The notes: generated by a model not told the origin, from the sequence alone. A stretch of DNA of 64,000 bases from a bacterium (GCA_037140955.1 JBAXDL010000003.1:27348-91347); one strand, 5' to 3'; shown: positions 4,189-51,749, counted from the stretch's first letter. A program made the numbers and translations.

Positions 4189-5088
4189 TTATATGTCCAT
4201 GAACAATGTTTCCAAAACAAGCCGCCCATTAGCATTGCTTCTCTTGAGAATTGTCATGCTCTTTTGAATTTTAGAGATGCTGTCATATGATTTTTTAGCA
4301 TCTTGACCATTGGCAACAATCATGGATTTCCTGATTTCCCAAAGCCAAATATTCAATTTTTCTATTGTTCTGAGTGTGTCCTTTGAGAGTTGTTCTGCGA
4401 GCTTGAACTTTTCATTCAACGTTCCTTTTTTCATTTTTTCAAATTCCATGAGCGCATCAATTCTGAAGTTTTTTTCTTCCACATTGGCATTCAAAAATTT
4501 TGCCAAGCCTGGTCTGCCAATTGAAAGCTCAATGCAATCATTTTGAAATGAAAAATCTTCACCAAAGCCTTTTTGCATGTCGCGATCTTCAACCAAACCA
4601 AAATTAAGAATCTGCAAGCGTGAGATTATTGTTGGCAAGATCCTGTCTATCTCATGGGTAACCAAGATTATTATTGTTGTTGGGTTTGGCTCTTCCAGGA
4701 TTTTCAAAAGTCCATTTTGCGCAGAAACATTCATTTTGTGAGCGCTATCAACAATCAAAATCTTGTATTTTCCATGATATGGAAACAAGCTTAGGCTGTT
4801 TTTGGCATCTCTGATTGCCTCAATAGAAATGTCACGCTGTTTTGTGATGCCATTTTTTTCTACCATTTCAGGTTCCACCACAAGCAAGTCCAGCAACGCT
4901 TCTTTGTTGTACTCATCCATTGTCAGTGACAATTCATCCCCAGAAATGGCAGCCAAGGCAAACATTTTTGCCAGTGTGAATTTGCCAACATTTTGCGGAC
5001 CAGAAAAAAGATAAGCATGACCAAGACTGCTCTTTTTTAGTGAGTTTCTAAGTATTGAGGCAACCTTTGTGTTTCCAATAAAGTCCAT
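4189..5088 (-). CDS. holB: DNA polymerase III delta-prime subunit.
   Basis: HAYLFSGPQNVGKFTLA (P-loop-like), LLKILEEP, SRLQ box. The length is about 300 aa. Confidence 0.75.
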   Translation of the reverse strand: MDFIGNTKVASILRNSLKKSSLGHAYLFSGPQNVGKFTLAKMFALAAISGDELSLTMDEYNKEALLDLLVVEPEMVEKNGITKQRDISIEAIRDAKNSLSLFPYHGKYKILIVDSAHKMNVSAQNGLLKILEEPNPTTIIILVTHEIDRILPTIISRLQILNFGLVEDRDMQKGFGEDFSFQNDCIELSIGRPGLAKFLNANVEEKNFRIDALMEFEKMKKGTLNEKFKLAEQLSKDTLRTIEKLNIWLWEIRKSMIVANGQDAKKSYDSISKIQKSMTILKRSNANGRLVLETLFMDI

Positions 5089-5213: not shown

Positions 5214-6356
5214 CTACTTTTCCAATAATGCTTTTTCAATAAACTGACCAAATTCCCTTTGAAATCTTTCTCTTGAAAATTCTTCTCCTCTTTTTCTTAT
5301 CACATCTTTATCATAATTCCCCTCATTATTCAAAAATCTTCTCACGCCATCAGCCAAAACTTCGGGAGTTTGGGCATCAAAAAATTCCCCCGTAACACCC
5401 TCTTGCACGGTTTCCAGTGCGCCACCCTTGCGAAATGCAATCACAGGAACACCACACAGCATTGATTCTATTGGAGTTATTCCAAAATCATCCTCTGCTG
5501 CGAAAATAAAAGCCTTGGCTCCTTTGAAATATTGTTGAGTGACCTTGTCCGACTTCCATCCCAGAATCTTAATGTTGTCCTTGGCAATTTTTCTGAGGTG
5601 TTTTTCTTGTTTACCTGTTCCAATCACAACCAAGGGCAATCCCAATTTATTGAAAGACTCCACCACCAAATCAACTTTTTTGTAAGGAGAAAGACGTGAG
5701 ACAACCAGGAAATAGTCTTTGTCTGTCAATTCTTGGCTTTTGGTTTCTAAATCCACTTCTTGCCTCAGGCTAACTGGTGGATATATTACCGAAGAATCAC
5801 GCCTATAATATTTTGAAATTCTTTTTTGCGTATACGATGAATTTGCAATCAAGTGTTCCGGCCTTTGCGCTGCAAGATTGTCCCAGAGGCGCAAATAGTT
5901 GAAAAAGAAGCGCAAGAAAAAATTAGCTTTTGTTTTTCTATCTTCCTTCAAATATCTCTCATTATAATCCCAAACCCAACGCATTGGCGAATGCAAATAT
6001 GCCACATTCACCGTGTCCAATTTTGTCACAATCCCCTTGCTCCAAGCGCCAGAAGATGAAATGACCAAGTCAAATTCACGCAAATCAAATGTCTCAGGAA
6101 TAACAGGGAAAAAAGGCAACAGCCATTGCTGGTTTTTTCGCAAAATTTTTGGAAACTTCTGCAAATAAGACGCAACAATGTTTCTATCCTTAAAATAGGT
6201 TGATTTTATTTTTTCATCATACAAAATGGTATAAATCGGAGCATCTGGATACATCTTGGCAATTTCCAAAAGAACCCGCTCTGCACCACCAAAAACAGTG
6301 ACAAAATCATGCACAATGGCAACTTTTATTTTTTTTTCAGCAACATCTTCTTTCAT
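5214..6356 (-). CDS. Glycosyltransferase family 4 (GT-B, group 1).
   Basis: GGAERV motif near the N-terminus. The C-terminal half is of the E-x7-E type (GITPIESMLCGVPVIA). The start overlaps the stop of the upstream recombinase by 4 nt. Confidence 0.7.
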   Translation of the reverse strand: MKEDVAEKKIKVAIVHDFVTVFGGAERVLLEIAKMYPDAPIYTILYDEKIKSTYFKDRNIVASYLQKFPKILRKNQQWLLPFFPVIPETFDLREFDLVISSSGAWSKGIVTKLDTVNVAYLHSPMRWVWDYNERYLKEDRKTKANFFLRFFFNYLRLWDNLAAQRPEHLIANSSYTQKRISKYYRRDSSVIYPPVSLRQEVDLETKSQELTDKDYFLVVSRLSPYKKVDLVVESFNKLGLPLVVIGTGKQEKHLRKIAKDNIKILGWKSDKVTQQYFKGAKAFIFAAEDDFGITPIESMLCGVPVIAFRKGGALETVQEGVTGEFFDAQTPEVLADGVRRFLNNEGNYDKDVIRKRGEEFSRERFQREFGQFIEKALLEK

Positions 6357-7165
6357 AAAGGACTTTTTATGTTTCTTAGCATCGGATTCGTCACCTTGGT
6401 ATATATCTGTGTTGTCCTTATATTAGCATGACCAAGAAGTTCCTGTACATATCGAACATCAACACCATTTTCCAACAAATGTGTTGCAAAGGAATGCCTG
6501 AGCGAATGAAATGTGGCATCCTTTTGGATTCCAGCTTTTTGCAAGGCATTTTCAAAAACCTTTTGCGCCGTTCGTTCCGTGAGCTTTCCCTTGCGCTCAC
6601 TAGCAAAAACAAACTCATCAAGATCCTTGCCTGCAATCAGGCTTTGAATTTTTTCAACCAATTTTTCAGGAAGCACTGTGATTCGATCCTTGTTTCCTTT
6701 GGCTCCCTTGAGATGCATTGTCAATTCAGGCAAATCCAAATCCTTGACCTTCAAGTTTATGACCTCACTAACTCTCAGTCCCCCAGCATATGCAAGCGCA
6801 ATCATCAAATTGTGCTTTTGATTGATAATTTCATTCAAAATGACTTGAATTTCATCTCGCGAAAGCACAATTGGAAGCTTGCTGGCAGTTTTGGCAAAAT
6901 GCACATCAATTTTTCCTCTATATTTGAGCACATTCCAGCAGAAAAAATTAATCGCTTGCAGACTTTGATTTGTTGTCTGAGAAGAATATCCTTTGTCCAC
7001 TTTTGATAGGATGAATTTCTTGATAAAATCAACATCAACCTTTTCAAAATTATCCTTTTTTGCTTGCAAATACTCAGCCACACAGAAAGAATAACTCTTG
7101 ATAGTTTTTGGACTGTATTTTCTCAGTCGCAATTCATCTTGAAGTTTTTGCAAATAGACGTCCAT
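6353..7165 (-). CDS. xer: Tyrosine-type site-specific recombinase, XerC/XerD family (short, 270 aa).
   Basis: The C-terminal catalytic region is HSLRHSFATHLLENGVDVRYVQELLGHANIRTTQIYTKV (R..H..R..H...Y). It is translationally coupled (ATGA overlap) to the downstream GT4 gene. Confidence 0.85.
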   Translation of the reverse strand: MDVYLQKLQDELRLRKYSPKTIKSYSFCVAEYLQAKKDNFEKVDVDFIKKFILSKVDKGYSSQTTNQSLQAINFFCWNVLKYRGKIDVHFAKTASKLPIVLSRDEIQVILNEIINQKHNLMIALAYAGGLRVSEVINLKVKDLDLPELTMHLKGAKGNKDRITVLPEKLVEKIQSLIAGKDLDEFVFASERKGKLTERTAQKVFENALQKAGIQKDATFHSLRHSFATHLLENGVDVRYVQELLGHANIRTTQIYTKVTNPMLRNIKSPL

Positions 7166-7235
7166 TGATATTTATGCTAATATTGCCTTGTAAATAAATT
7201 ATACAAAATATTCGCAATAGATGCAAAATTTTGTA

Positions 7236-7262
7236 CAGTATGCGAAAACACTTCGCATACAA
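7236..7262. promoter_or_regulatory. dif-like palindrome: cagtatgcgaa-aacac-ttcgcatacaa (arms of about 11 bp, 5-nt spacer).
   Basis: The 9-bp arms are perfectly inverted (gtatgcgaa / ttcgcatac), extending to 11 with two mismatches. The site lies 70-95 bp upstream of the xer start and has the architecture of Xer recombination sites. Confidence 0.35.
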
Positions 7263-7311
7263 AAGAGTTGATCTGAAATGTCGCTCCACTACGTTTGCTC
7301 CATTTCAAATC

Positions 7312-7340
7312 AACGTGCGCGCCTGCCAGGCGCGCACGTT
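7312..7340. promoter_or_regulatory. 29-bp perfect GC-rich palindrome: aacgtgcgcgcctg-c-caggcgcgcacgtt.
   Basis: 14-bp arms with a 1-nt centre. It is the most GC-rich 30-mer in an AT-rich spacer, lies between the divergent xer and the 7417 gene, and is preceded by an overlapping 14-bp imperfect hairpin (7267-7314). Confidence 0.4.
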
Positions 7341-7416
7341 GTGCGAAATCTAGAATTTACATTTTATTTTGAAGGGCAAGAAAAATTATTTAATACGAGA
7401 ATATAATTTAACTTTT

Positions 7417-8070
7417 ATGAACACATATATTTATAAGAAATATGTAATTATTTTTGGATTTATTATTGGCTCCCTTCTTTTTATTATAGATCACCATTTG
7501 GAATATTTTTTGTACGGATTTATTATTGGCGCAATAATTTCTGTTGTTTATGTTTATACTTTTATTCCCAAGGCGGAATCTTCAGTTATAGTTTTTGATG
7601 ATGAAAAAATGATGCCCGGATCACCAATGCCATCAAAAATTTACATTTTAAGAGGGTTTTTTATAGGATTGCTTGTTTCTTTTATATTGATTCTGATTCC
7701 AGTTTTTATGCGCTCAATCCGTGACTTTAATCAAGCAAGAAAAGCTCATACGGATTATGTTTACGTAATTCAAAATTGCGGAAATAATCCAAGTGATAGT
7801 TGTCTCAGGAAATTGTGTTCTAATAATTACGATTGCGGGTTTGCTGTAATAAAAGATCCTCTTTCTTCTTTTGCATTAGAATATCATGATTATCGAGTTG
7901 AAAATGCTTCATATGCTTGGACGTTACTAATTCCAGATATCAGCGAGGGACTACAAGTATATTATATGTTTGGTTATTTGGGATTACTTGTCTTGCTATT
8001 ATTTTTAATCATTCCAGTATTATTAGGCTCGCTATTCGGTTTTATATATGGAAAATCGAAATACAAATAA
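7417..8070 (+). CDS. Hypothetical 4-TM membrane protein with a Cys-rich central loop. The start is uncertain: the ORF track uses TTG at 7369, and ATG 7417 is preferred here.
   Basis: Hydrophobic segments occur at both ends. The central loop reads NCGNNPSDSCLRKLCSNNYDCGF. A TATAAT lies at 7402-7407, 9 nt before the ATG. No recognisable family. Confidence 0.35.
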   Translation: MNTYIYKKYVIIFGFIIGSLLFIIDHHLEYFLYGFIIGAIISVVYVYTFIPKAESSVIVFDDEKMMPGSPMPSKIYILRGFFIGLLVSFILILIPVFMRSIRDFNQARKAHTDYVYVIQNCGNNPSDSCLRKLCSNNYDCGFAVIKDPLSSFALEYHDYRVENASYAWTLLIPDISEGLQVYYMFGYLGLLVLLLFLIIPVLLGSLFGFIYGKSKYK

Positions 8071-8330
8071 ATTTTCTTGCCCTTTATTTTTAATGAAAAT
8101 TCTCGACATCGTCCAACACGGCATATCTGGTTTCGCTACGCTACACCCAAATGCTTCGCACTTCAGATGGTGCCAATACGTTGATCTGAAATGTTCCCAA
8201 ATTAGGAACACTTCAATTTGCATTCATAAAAAATTCATTTGTCCACATATTGAATACAACTAAATTTCAACATTGATTCATATATGCAAAAGTGATCAAG
8301 AAATAATATTTGATATTTTTCATATTAAGA

Positions 8331-8365: not shown

Positions 8366-8665
8366 ATGACTACATTAACTATCAAAAATCAAATAATCCC
8401 TATTTTAAAGCGCCAAGGAGTCCTTAAGGCGGCTATTTTTGGTTCTTTTGCAAGAGGTGAGGAAACAAAAAGAAGCGATGTTGATATTTTGGTAAAACTT
8501 GGCAAAAACAAGAGTTTGCTTGATCTTGTCGGGCTTAAGCTTGAATTGGAAGATAGTCTTGGTAGGGATGTCGATGTCGTTTCCTATGGAGGAATTAACC
8601 CACTCTTGAAAAATATAATTTTAAAAGAACAAAAAGTGATTTATGAAAGAAAAAAAAGATCCTAA
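8366..8665 (+). CDS. mntA: MntA-type minimal nucleotidyltransferase (antitoxin of a HepT/MntA TA pair).
   Basis: GSFARGEETKRSDVDILV (GS-x9-13-D-x-D nucleotidyltransferase motif). About 99 aa from ATG 8366. The track's 8273 start adds an unlikely 31-aa extension. Confidence 0.75.
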   Translation: MTTLTIKNQIIPILKRQGVLKAAIFGSFARGEETKRSDVDILVKLGKNKSLLDLVGLKLELEDSLGRDVDVVSYGGINPLLKNIILKEQKVIYERKKRS

Positions 8666-8987
8666 AATTTTTCTTACACATATTTTAAAAAGTATAGAGA
8701 GAATAGAAGATGATACGGCTGGTTTGTCTGAGGCTCAATTTTCAAGAGCACTAACCGTTCAAGATGCGGTTGTGCGTAGGCTGGAAATTATCGGTGAAGC
8801 TGTAAGAAATATTGCAGATGATTTTAGAAAAAAGCATACTAAAATCCCTTGGAAGAAAATGGCAGGATTGCGTGATGTTTTGATTCATGAATATTTTGGT
8901 GTCGACATGGAACTTGTTTGGAAAATTATTAACAATGATATTCCAAAATTGAAAAAACAAATTTTGAAAATAGTTGAAAAACTTTAG
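8643..8987 (+). CDS. hepT: HepT-type toxin (DUF86, HEPN family).
   Basis: R-x4-HxY motif (RDVLIHEYF). 114 aa. It overlaps the mntA stop by 23 nt. Confidence 0.7.
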   Translation: MKEKKDPKIFLTHILKSIERIEDDTAGLSEAQFSRALTVQDAVVRRLEIIGEAVRNIADDFRKKHTKIPWKKMAGLRDVLIHEYFGVDMELVWKIINNDIPKLKKQILKIVEKL

Positions 8988-10232: not shown

Positions 10233-10343
10233 TGCGAGATTATTTTTATTATTTGGCCAATAACCGGCGACAGTGGATTCTTGAGCTTTTGGATATTAAG
10301 CATTTCATCCAAAAGCGTGCCAAAAAATGAAAATAATCTCACA
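10233..10343 (+). repeat. MITE-like intergenic element, copy A (TIR tgcgagattatttt / aaaataatctcaca, central hairpin).
   Basis: 111 bp between mreB (3' end) and GT4 (5' end). Hairpin gcttttggat-N12-atccaaaagc at 10285-10316. Shares the ggccaa..gcgacag..tgagctttt..aaaagcgtgccaaaaa core with five other copies. Confidence 0.8.
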
Positions 10344-10358
10344 TAACTCAATAAAAGC

Positions 10359-11766: not shown

Positions 11767-11870
11767 GTGAATCTATTTCATCTTGAGGCAACAGCGAACG
11801 AGAGTGAGGTCTTAGCTTTTGATTATTAACTCCTTAATCAAAAGCGTGCCGAAAGAGGAAATAGATGAGC
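11767..11870 (+). repeat. MITE-like element, copy B (TIR tgaatctatttc / gaaatagatgag).
   Basis: Between murA (3' end) and the mazG-like gene (5' end). Hairpin gcttttgatta-N9-taatcaaaagc followed by gtgccgaaagaggaaatag. The core is colinear with copies A, C, D, E and F. Confidence 0.7.
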
Positions 11871-11894
11871 AGAAATTTGCTCAATCAAAAAACT

Positions 11895-34865: not shown

Positions 34866-34972
34866 TGTGAGACAATTTTTCTTTTCGGCCAACAGAAACG
34901 AGAGTTTCTCTTGAGCTTTTAGATATTGAGTATTTTATCTAAAAGCGTGCCAAGAAGGAAAATAGTCAAGCA
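34866..34972 (+). repeat. MITE-like element, copy C (TIR tgtgagacaattttt / aaaatagtcaagca).
   Basis: Between mazG and the tmk-like gene. Hairpin gcttttagat-N12-atctaaaagc shows compensatory changes relative to other copies. Confidence 0.8.
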
Positions 34973-34990
34973 ATTGTGCAAACATCTTGC

Positions 34991-36120: not shown

Positions 36121-36226
36121 TGCGAGACAAATTTTATTTTTGGCACGCTTTTGAATGAATACTCACTATTCAAAAGCTCAAGAGCTACTGTCGCCAGCTG
36201 TTGGCCAAAAACAAAATTAGTCTCGC
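36121..36226 (-). repeat. MITE-like element, copy D, in inverted orientation (TIR tgcgagacaaat / attagtctcgcga).
   Basis: The reverse complement matches the core of copies A, C and E (ggccaacagctggcgacag...gagcttttgaatagtgagtattcattcaaaagcgtgccaaaaa). It lies between folA and thyA. Confidence 0.8.
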
Positions 36227-40117: not shown

Positions 40118-40224
40118 TGTGAAACTATTTTTCTTTTTTGGCCAATAGAAGCGACAGCTTCTCCTGAGCTTTTGAATAATGAGTATTTCATTCAAAAGCG
40201 TGCCAAAAAGGAAAATAGTGGAAC
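40118..40224 (+). repeat. MITE-like element, copy E (TIR tgtgaaactattttt / aaaatagtggaaca). Serves as the reference copy.
   Basis: Inserted in the rplK-rplA intergenic spacer. Core ttttggccaatagaagcgacagcttctcctgagcttttgaataatgagtatttcattcaaaagcgtgccaaaaaggaaaatagtggaacaattgc. Confidence 0.85.
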
Positions 40225-40249
40225 AATTGCAATCATCTTAAAGAATGTT

Positions 40250-41653: not shown

Positions 41654-41663
41654 ATTAAATAGG

Positions 41664-41737
41664 TGGGCTTATCAAGATTCGAACTTGAGACCTCGTCATT
41701 ATCAGTGACGCGCTCTAACCAGCTGAGCTATAAGCCC
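41664..41737 (-). tRNA. tRNA-Ile (anticodon GAT).
   Basis: The reverse complement gggcttatagctcagctggttagagcgcgtcactgataatgacgaggtctcaagttcgaatcttgataagccca folds as a canonical cloverleaf. Anticodon loop ctGATaa. 74 nt, CCA not encoded. Confidence 0.9.
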
Positions 41738-41784
41738 ATAAAATTTGCAAAAACTGCGTGATAAGCGCAGTAAATTCTATGTTG

Positions 41785-41857
41785 TGGACCGGACAGGACT
41801 TGAACCCGCTACCTCCTCAGTGCAAATGAGGCGCTCTACCAGGTGAGCTACCGGCCC
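41785..41857 (-). tRNA. tRNA-Ala (anticodon TGC) with a G3:U70 identity pair.
   Basis: The reverse complement gggccggtagctcacctggtagagcgcctcatttgcactgaggaggtagcgggttcaagtcctgtccggtcca. Anticodon loop ttTGCac. Acceptor gggccgg/ccggtcc with G3-U70. Confidence 0.9.
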
Positions 41858-51546: not shown

Positions 51547-51730
51547 TGAGAATAATTTTTTATTTTTGGCGCAATAGCGTCGTGCTTAGCACTCTTTCAA
51601 ACCCCTCGGTTCGAATAATTCCGCCACGGGAAAACCTAGTTTTTCCCGACCCATTTCCTGACAGTTTCTATTGAGCTTTTGGATATTGTGTATTTATCCA
51701 AAAGCATGCCAAAAAGAAAGATGGTAGAAC
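51547..51730 (+). repeat. MITE-like element, copy F, carrying a nested insertion of about 78 bp (51592-51669) that contains gggaaaacctagtttttccc and ggttcgaat motifs.
   Basis: Left end gtgagaataattttttatttttggcgcaatagcgtcg. Right part tgacagtttctattgagcttttggatattgtgtatttatccaaaagcatgccaaaaagaaagatggtagaaca. Hairpin gcttttggat/atccaaaagc. Lies between yvcK and leuS. Confidence 0.7.
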
Positions 51731-51749
51731 AATTTAACTCAAGAAATAT

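Follow-up and report, generated by a model that had tools for sequence, protein, structure and literature searches.

The window analysed here is a 64-kb stretch of a bacterial genome (JBAXDL010000003.1:27348-91347), and all statements about the host refer to this part of its genome. An intergenic spacer at 7166-7416 separates two divergent genes, a tyrosine recombinase gene on the minus strand (6353-7165, 270 aa) and an open reading frame (ORF) for a 217-aa protein on the plus strand (7417-8070). The spacer holds three palindromes, termed (a), (b), and (c), clustered at 7236-7345. These palindromes, and the recombination system to which they probably belong, are the subject of this study.

The recombinase is of the Xer/XerA-like type, as judged from Pfam, NCBIfam, and solved structures. 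Pfam detects Phage_integrase (5.8e-44) and Phage_int_SAM_4. The top NCBIfam match is XerA_Arch (216.6 bits, cut-off 220), followed by the integron integrase TIGR02249 (211 bits, in two stretches), XerD, and XerC. The nearest solved structures are those of XerA (5HXY, 2.7e-42; 4A8E, 5.8e-40), and the next is Vibrio IntI4 (2A3V), again aligned in two stretches. An earlier note on this DNA, made from the sequence alone, had named the gene as a Xer-family tyrosine recombinase, and the best matches, to archaeal XerA and integron integrase, agree with it. The XerA alignment covers the catalytic region, with the motifs LRVSE, KGNKDR, HSLRH, GHAN, and IYT aligned. The split alignments with TIGR02249 and 2A3V leave out ~40-70 profile or chain positions at residues 178-191 of the query, indicating that the IntI-specific insertion, an additional domain within the catalytic domain, is absent. 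Integron IntI is ~320 aa long, compared with 270 aa for the window recombinase. Thousands of homologues with 60-91% identity come from Moranbacteria, Wolfebacteria, and other Patescibacteria. The protein fits the 'Cand' subgroup of Xer-related recombinases from candidate phyla, whose description gives no site (PMC8138268). No second tyrosine recombinase is found in the 64-kb window.

All three palindromic structures described in the earlier note are present, with some corrections to their dimensions. Palindrome (a) (7236-7262), taken for a dif-like site with 11-bp arms and a 5-nt spacer, is an inverted repeat with that spacer, but only 9 bp of its arms are perfect (7238-7246 and 7252-7260), and the 11-nt arms agree at 9 of 11 positions. 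Hairpin (b) (7267-7314) has the expected 14-bp stem with one mismatch (7267-7280 and 7301-7314); its loop is 20 nt, and the mismatch is a G.T pair on the minus strand. Palindrome (c) (7311-7341), given as 29 bp, is perfect but two bases longer, with 15-bp arms (7311-7325 and 7327-7341) around a single base; it has CAAC in common with (b). The note placed the cluster within 110 bp of the recombinase start codon (7165), but the actual distance is 71-180 bp upstream.

The three palindromes are not chance. The 15-bp stem of (c) is the joint longest among the perfect local hairpins of the 64 kb, and a stem of this length is never reached in 30 shuffles of the window. It is also by far the richest in GC, at 73% compared with 14-46% for the other perfect local hairpins in the window. 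Folded as a single strand, 7262-7352 gives z scores of -5.4 (plus strand) and -6.0 (minus strand), and (a) gives a z score of -5.5. No further copy of any of the three is found in the window.

We compared the locus with 80 genome loci encoding relatives of the recombinase and with 94 metagenome stretches; the titles of the metagenome-assembled genomes (MAGs) of several loci bear implausible taxon names. About 64 of 81 loci share a core, ATTtcgcatAAC|TCgTTtaTATgCGAA, 100-157 nt ahead of the recombinase start codon. The conserved form in loci of the Candidate Phyla Radiation (CPR; Patescibacteria) is ATTTCnnnnAAC | TCGTTTA | TATGCGAAGT. In recombinase orientation, the consensus reads ATTTCnnnnAA (arm 1), CTCGTTT (centre), and ATATGCGAAGT (arm 2); across the 64 loci, the middle of arm 1 is variable, and AAC, the centre, and arm 2 are nearly invariant. 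A position-weight matrix made from 45 loci detects the core of the window on the minus strand at 7249-7280 (CATTTCAGATCAAC / TCTTTTG / TATGCGAAGTG), with a score of 22. This is the only match in the 64 kb; shuffled sequences give 0-2 matches at a threshold of 10, and the matrix with 1-4 added central bases finds no further full core in the window. The two ~11-bp inverted arms around a 7-bp centre (11-7-11) have the geometry of dif, which spans about 28-31 bp with a centre of 6-11 bp.

The earlier note proposed that the DNA ahead of the recombinase gene contains its recombination site. A conserved site does lie in this region, but it is not palindrome (a). The core combines the right arm of (a) with the left arm of (b), in the order arm 1, 7 nt, and arm 2. 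The arms of (a) have the opposite polarity, and the breakpoint described below is located beside (a), not on it. Palindrome (a) is made of arm 2 (7252-7260), the inner arm of the core, and arm 3 (7238-7246), a putative accessory arm that occurs in only part of the family and whose spacer varies in sequence and length. In one locus (L007, 1-170), a tRNA-like sequence (GGTTGGATTTGAACCAAC) replaces the usual core directly upstream of the recombinase, maybe through rearrangement or in a chimeric contig. In another (L010, 3825-3895), a tRNA gene lies directly downstream of the recombinase.

A core of this kind raises the possibility of a classical single-recombinase Xer/dif module, in which the site serves dimer resolution and the extra DNA consists of elements integrated at dif in the manner of integrative mobile elements exploiting Xer (IMEX). 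The recombinase belongs to the Xer family, is nearest to XerA, and has the catalytic motifs. The consensus outer arm (arm 1) of the two 11-bp inverted arms, ATTTCGCATAA, resembles the XerC arm of E. coli dif, GGTGCGCATAA (PMC3025954). The sites of XerS and XerH likewise adjoin their genes (PMC5357621), the genes GT4, holB, and ftsQ downstream of the recombinase in ~15 loci provide a conserved chromosomal context, and 'Cand' recombinases have been proposed as stand-ins for Xer (PMC8138268). However, the skew minimum that the earlier note suggested looking for at the site is not there: all 2-kb bins of the 64 kb have a negative GC skew, whose sign stays unchanged across 7.2 kb, and the flanking genes are co-oriented on the minus strand. 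In addition, two MAGs, UBA4824 (L036, L040) and H52-bin056 (L041, L081), each have two recombinase-plus-core platforms on different contigs, which reflects either two platforms per genome or mixed strains, as MAGs can be mixtures. The properties of the partner sites and arrays, given below, make this module unlikely.

The DNA directly left of arm 1 differs between relatives. In the closest ones, L002 (83% protein identity) and L003 (81%), it is AT-rich, and (b) and (c) are absent beside the recombinase. Approximately 20 loci carry a GC-rich, hairpin-rich element of 160-224 nt at that exact point, between two copies of arm 1. L008 and L025, which are empty, have the same 80-nt left flank as L026, which is filled, and the right flank is also common to them. 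The L026 insert comprises 217 GC-rich nucleotides exactly between ...CAGCTAA(C/T) and TCGTTTATAT. The same pattern is seen when L017 is compared with L016 and L019. Empty and filled loci part exactly at AA|C, which corresponds to G7267|T7268 on the plus strand of the window and lies outside (a). This step is the putative point of crossover.

The predicted recombinase promoter on the minus strand, TTTGCA and TATAAT separated by 18 nt (7198-7227), is the best sigma-70-like match in 7100-8300 (10 of 12 positions), and equivalent -35 and -10 elements are kept across the compared loci. A fourth arm, TATTGCGAATAT on the minus strand, is positioned inside the promoter spacer (7208-7219); in most loci, TTGCGAATA / TTATGCGAA sits between the -35 and -10 elements. 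Arm 3 is positioned 8 nt upstream of the -35 element. Arm 4 is presumably an accessory or operator site that the recombinase may bind, and arms 3 and 4 may regulate the recombinase promoter. In an alternative reading prompted by these positions, the palindromes are autoregulatory operators only: the recombinase or some other regulator would bind them to control the two divergent promoters, and strand exchange would not take place at the locus. This is highly improbable, since it leaves the AA|C breakpoint, the insertions, and the arrays unexplained, and close relatives do not keep (b) and (c) at this position. Their absence from L002 and L003 also speaks against their being an operator or a fixed accessory site; the earlier note had suggested an operator or a recombinase accessory site for (c). 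An operator function fits arms 3 and 4 as one part of the cassette model set out below.

In the window, (b) and (c) together appear to be one small mobile cassette without an ORF, a bare attC-like site of 71 bp (7268-7338, plus strand), as suggested by its fold and by its homology to the metagenome stretch L134. Its 5' end (7268-7280) and the junction G would form R', which is followed by 20 nt and R'' (7301-7314). L'' (7315-7325), C7326, and L' (7327-7337) come next, and G7338 is the end. When re-circularised (7301-7338 joined to 7268-7280), the cassette folds into a 24-bp hairpin (dG -26.9 kcal/mol, z -10.2). The homologous sequence in L134 (4004-4183) is a ~180-nt GC-rich ORF-less cassette, in which hairpin (b) recurs over 57 nearly identical nucleotides and the outer stem, GCGCGCGCCTG...CAGGCGCGCGC, is the same. 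The stem halves are separated by ~110 nt in L134, whereas they abut in the window, giving palindrome (c). Hairpin (b) is also found at a non-core junction in L134. We suggest that the window element is an internally deleted copy of this ~180-nt GC-rich cassette family. Hairpin (b) would then be the R'/R'' pair, and (c), which reads AAC-L''-C-L'-GTT, would be an L-box stem that has lost its loop and stands between the conserved triplets AAC and GTT.

GC-rich ORF-less cassettes can be repeated. One of them is present three times in the L113 array (4848-5022, 7312-7487, and 8205-~8390), and it is present twice in the complete Wolfebacteria genome CP011209 (L011, at -1487 and -291), alternating with gene cassettes. 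The repeated cassettes may multiply within arrays or have a structural role. One family contains four YCYGAAG motifs ~11 nt apart (TCCGAAGT..TCCGAAGA..CCCGAAGG..TCTGAAGG), seen in L040 (2100-2160), L033, L038, and L009 (1730-1790). This spacing equals one helical turn, as if the motifs were binding sites on one helix face. Mini-hairpins of the GCGAAGC type in the loops, considered as a sign of single-stranded DNA, are more simply explained as arm-derived CGAAG motifs and are not used here. An interpretation of the GC-rich insert as a miniature inverted-repeat transposable element or a mini-IMEX has been superseded by the arrays and the circular permutation described next.

Secondary sites carry a signature in which arm 1 precedes YSYGAWGY by 9-14 nt. 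Within the ~142 kb that lie upstream of the recombinases, the recombinase strand has 72 such signatures. The counts in the control regions are 5 on the other strand of the upstream DNA and 0 and 6 in the ~145 kb downstream. The secondary sites thus lie only on the recombinase-upstream side and in the same orientation, as in an array next to attI, at spacings of 0.3-2.9 kb. A frequent secondary site is ATTTCnnnnAAC|GTATCGGCATCATCTGAAGT, and scanning metagenome contigs for it gave the 94 stretches. Their arrays have up to 9 co-oriented sites per 10 kb (L160, L134, L138, L118, and L113). Minus-strand signatures are almost absent from these arrays, and the recombinase, when present, is always on the same side.

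The intervals between sites have a median length of 809 bp (5th-95th percentile, 179-2911 bp) and look like compact cassettes that read in one direction. The dominant ORF is opposite in strand to the recombinase in 92 of 97 intervals; it starts ~71 nt from the proximal junction and stops ~218 nt from the distal one. The cargo is diverse: 101 ORFs fall into 82 clusters, 68 of them singletons, with Pfam matches that include HD, serine hydrolase, TIM-barrel, NUDIX, laccase-like, Bro-N, and cupin families. Nucleotide similarity between arrays is restricted to single cassettes and stops within ~20 nt of the junctions, as seen in L079/L104, L030/L115/L160/L164, L114/L160, and L035/L118. Two cassette blocks stand in exchanged order in L115 and L160 (99.3-99.9% identity), with the breakpoints at junctions. 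In viral contigs, the palindrome of arms 2 and 3 has 0 matches, and the cassette-site motif has one, which lacks a proper arm and is judged to be chance; a phage attP reading is therefore without support.

Many contigs end close to the platform. Of the 80 genome loci, 28 have a contig that breaks off 2-401 nt upstream of the start of the recombinase gene, in many cases within the GC-rich element or precisely at AAC|TC; these loci include L004, L006, L013, L018, L024, L029, L034, L038, L054, L057, L062, and L081. A Logan contig from the same organism as the window (L001) likewise breaks off at a distance of 29 nt from the midpoint of the 31-bp palindrome. Assemblies of CPR metagenomes thus appear to break systematically at the platform.

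The ORF-less cassette of the window is adjoined by a putative gene cassette (7339-8180, plus strand) with one ORF, which points away from the recombinase, a geometry shared with 92 of 97 cassettes elsewhere. This cassette is delimited by its bounding sites, GTTGTGCGAAAT (7338-7349) and an exact second copy of GTTGATCTGAAATG (8180-8193). The 14-mer GTTGATCTGAAATG occurs exactly twice in the window, at 7267 and 8180, on either side of the ORF. The ORF (7417-8070) encodes a predicted membrane protein of 217 aa, for which Pfam and NCBIfam give no significant family. The array in the window ends at 8193. Directly past this end lies a toxin-antitoxin pair on the plus strand, a nucleotidyltransferase (MNT, Polbeta) and HepT (8366-8987). 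No attC-like site is found beyond the pair, and therefore it does not look like a cassette.

The attC-like site of the gene cassette (8106-8193, plus strand) is homologous to a module, ...AAC|GTATCGGCATCATCTGAAGT...CCAGATATGCCGTGTTnnnnGATGT, that is conserved in dozens of loci. It comprises R'' ACATCGTCCAAC (8106-8117), L'' GGCATATCTGG (8120-8130), a variable part, L' CAGATGGTGCC (8164-8174), ATAC, and R' G|TTGATCTGAAATG (8180-8193). On the coding strand, the general layout of a cassette end is R'' ACATCnnnnAAC, AC, L'' (for example GGCATATCTGG), a variable hairpin region, L' (for example CAGAT(G)ATGCC), ATAC, and R' (G|TTnnnnGAAAT). L'' and L' covary: perfect complements are seen for at least 17 different sequences of 10-12 nt, and in one class a single base is bulged. 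A hairpin partner for R'/R'' is present in 31 of 269 sites, with 15 different variable cores, all compensated. The sites therefore share with attC the order R''-L''...L'-R', the AAC and GTT triplets, a conserved structure with free sequence, and an extrahelical base.

The R'' box also pairs across the cassette. In 25 of 55 cassettes, 4 of its 4 variable nucleotides (GTT-nnnn-GATGT) can pair with the arm at the cassette's opposite end; the mean over all is 2.89 of 4. The mean between R'' and the adjacent R' is 1.67, and permuted pairs give 1.65, with a maximum of 2.09 in 1000 permutations. The pairing of R'' with the far-end arm suggests that each cassette used to be circular and that its single hairpin site was cut at G|TT when the cassette inserted, as happens in integrons. 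The crossover would accordingly fall at G|TT in R', with both cassette ends derived from one circular site. Re-circularised sites have a median dG of -22 kcal/mol and a z score of -5.6, and in 32 of 45 cases pairing with the cassette's own far-end arm gives a more stable fold than pairing with the adjacent one. The idea that nnnn specifies a target in the manner of a guide RNA was rejected, as the nnnn of the adjacent chromosomal arm does not match.

Stable structures downstream of ORFs may also be RNA elements. The palindromes and sites are GC-rich and strongly structured in an AT-rich genome and lie downstream of the cassette ORFs, as would be expected of terminators, elements of 3' untranslated regions, or small RNAs unrelated to recombination. 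However, Rfam has no relevant match, at gathering thresholds or at E values up to 10, in the window and eight loci; the hairpins are not followed by T-runs; and the counts of G.T and A.C pairs show no strand preference. Moreover, structured RNA cannot account for the end-to-end complementarity across the ORF, the existence of empty and filled sites, the homology confined to single cassettes, or the strict direction of the sites with respect to the recombinase. We therefore give this explanation very little weight. The cassette sites weigh against the Xer/dif module as well, since they are defined by structure, with covarying stems, unlike dif or IMEX attP, and known IMEX arrays do not resemble these rows of up to 9 single-ORF units.

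The cluster at 7236-7345 thus probably belongs to an integron-like platform for gene cassettes in a bacterium of the CPR (Patescibacteria), where it forms the end nearest the recombinase. This interpretation draws on comparative sequence analysis: computed core conservation, oriented arrays, ORF orientation, cassette-confined homology, covariation of the L-boxes, and the pairing of R'' with the far end. In the proposed mechanism, the primary site acts as attI and has four arm repeats of the type TATGCGAA / TTCGCATA. Arms 1 and 2 would form the dif-like 11-7-11 core (7249-7280), with strand exchange at AA|C, and arms 3 and 4, flanking and inside the recombinase promoter, would be accessory or autoregulatory binding sites. 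Circular cassettes would carry a structure-defined site in the role of attC, composed of R''...AAC, L'', the variable hairpin region, L', and GTT...R'. They would insert at the core and build up an array of single ORFs that all run in one direction, away from the recombinase. In the window, cassette 1 would be the 71-bp ORF-less unit made solely of an attC-like site, with (b) as R'/R'' and (c) as L''/L' after an interior deletion, and cassette 2 (7339-8180) would carry the membrane-protein gene and its own degenerate site. The recombinase encoded at 6353-7165 probably catalyses the cassette reaction, and the attC-like partner may react as folded single-stranded or cruciform DNA.

Several observations weigh against this interpretation. 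The recombinase does not have the insertion by which IntI reads extrahelical bases. About one-third of the recombinase loci have no secondary site within 3 kb. The metagenome loci were chosen by one site motif, and the array statistics on them are enriched for that class. The exchanged order in L115 and L160 could have arisen through mis-assembly across repeated sites. The gene-cassette site of the window (8100-8196) is degenerate and not significantly folded (z about 0), and its R'' pairs poorly with the cassette's own 5' end (8 of 12 positions). In R-box hairpins, G.T and A.C pairs number 14 and 12, respectively, with no strand bias; folding specific to the bottom strand is for this reason not claimed. 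Finally, the core may have a dual role and also serve chromosome dimer resolution.

Integrons are the textbook gene-capture system, and the platform resembles them, especially sedentary chromosomal ones, in many respects. In both, the recombinase gene adjoins a primary site with several binding repeats; a one-directional, mostly single-ORF cassette array extends away from the recombinase; ORF-less cassettes occur; and the cargo is diverse. The cassette sites of both have imperfect R''-L''...L'-R' repeats with AAC and GTT, keep structure over sequence, and in some cases contain a bulged base. The putative crossover at G|TT and the circular permutation of cassettes in the array are alike as well. 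The platform differs from integrons in its enzyme, which lacks the IntI insertion and groups with XerA and 'Cand', in its dif-like 11-7-11 primary site, in site sequences such as GTATCGGCATCATCTGAAGT...CCAGATATGCCGTGTT, which are unlike known attC, in the large GC-rich ORF-less cassettes repeated in arrays, and in its CPR host; recombination through a single strand is putative here. The architecture agrees with that of integrons in each point but the IntI insertion that defines them. Because this insertion is absent, we name the system an integron analogue and do not file it as an integron.

Archaeal XerA/dif provides the nearest recombinase by sequence and likewise combines a single recombinase with a site of 11-bp inverted arms. 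We know of no cassette arrays in archaeal XerA/dif. The archaeal XerA dif sites lie in termination regions and do not adjoin xerA (PMC2958812). XerS/difSL and XerH/difH also have the site immediately beside the recombinase gene, as one module, but these proteins are ~355 aa long and match the window recombinase weakly (XerS model, 71 bits; XerH, 7e-15), and their sites sit at the terminus, with no cassette array next to them. IMEX (CTX-phi, VGJ-phi, and TLC-phi) are recombinase-free elements that insert at a Xer site and build up in tandem, and CTX-phi uses a folded single-stranded attP. They differ in being phages or islands with a sequence-defined, dif-like attP, whereas the units described here are 0.07-3 kb long, mostly single genes, with covarying stem-loop sites. 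Acinetobacter pdif modules are similarly small gene modules between Xer-type sites, but their sites are sequence-defined XerC/XerD sites of alternating orientation on plasmids, whereas the sites here all point the same way, starting from one recombinase gene.

The window has two other features of note. A family of intergenic repeats of 50-100 nt, unrelated to the recombinase sites, contains an 11-bp hairpin, GCTTTTGGATA-N9-TATCCAAAAGC, followed by GTGCCAAAAA. Copies are located at 10279-10345, 11815-11871, 34909-34976, 40162-40229, and 51669-51731, with an inverted copy at 36133-36192, and most of them lie just past the stops of minus-strand genes. A pair of tRNA genes, tRNA-Ile(GAT) and tRNA-Ala(TGC), lies on the minus strand at 41662-41857. 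Such a pair is the usual content of the 16S-23S spacer, but no match to rRNA is found across the 64 kb.

On balance, we lean towards the view that the locus represents a widespread and undescribed gene-capture system of CPR/Patescibacteria, similar to the integron, with a Xer/XerA-type enzyme lacking the IntI domain, a dif-looking primary site, and structure-defined cassette sites. It would be either an intermediate between Xer/dif and the integron or an independent invention. No description of such a system in CPR/Patescibacteria is found in the searchable full-text literature, outside of which most subscription journals lie; the one relevant item there is the 'Cand' subgroup. That integrons arose from Xer-like recombinases is a long-standing topic of discussion, for which, to our knowledge, an intermediate form has been lacking. 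The system described here combines a dif-like primary site, a plain Xer/XerA-type enzyme, and attC-like cassette sites. If this view is correct, it would provide a testable model for the origin of structure-specific cassette recombination and for the need for the IntI insertion. It would also explain the frequent assembly breaks just upstream of this recombinase, and the compact new pairs of recombinase and site could serve as tools. For CPR bacteria, whose tiny genomes are usually deemed static, the platform would be a major route of gene flux and of accessory-gene storage.

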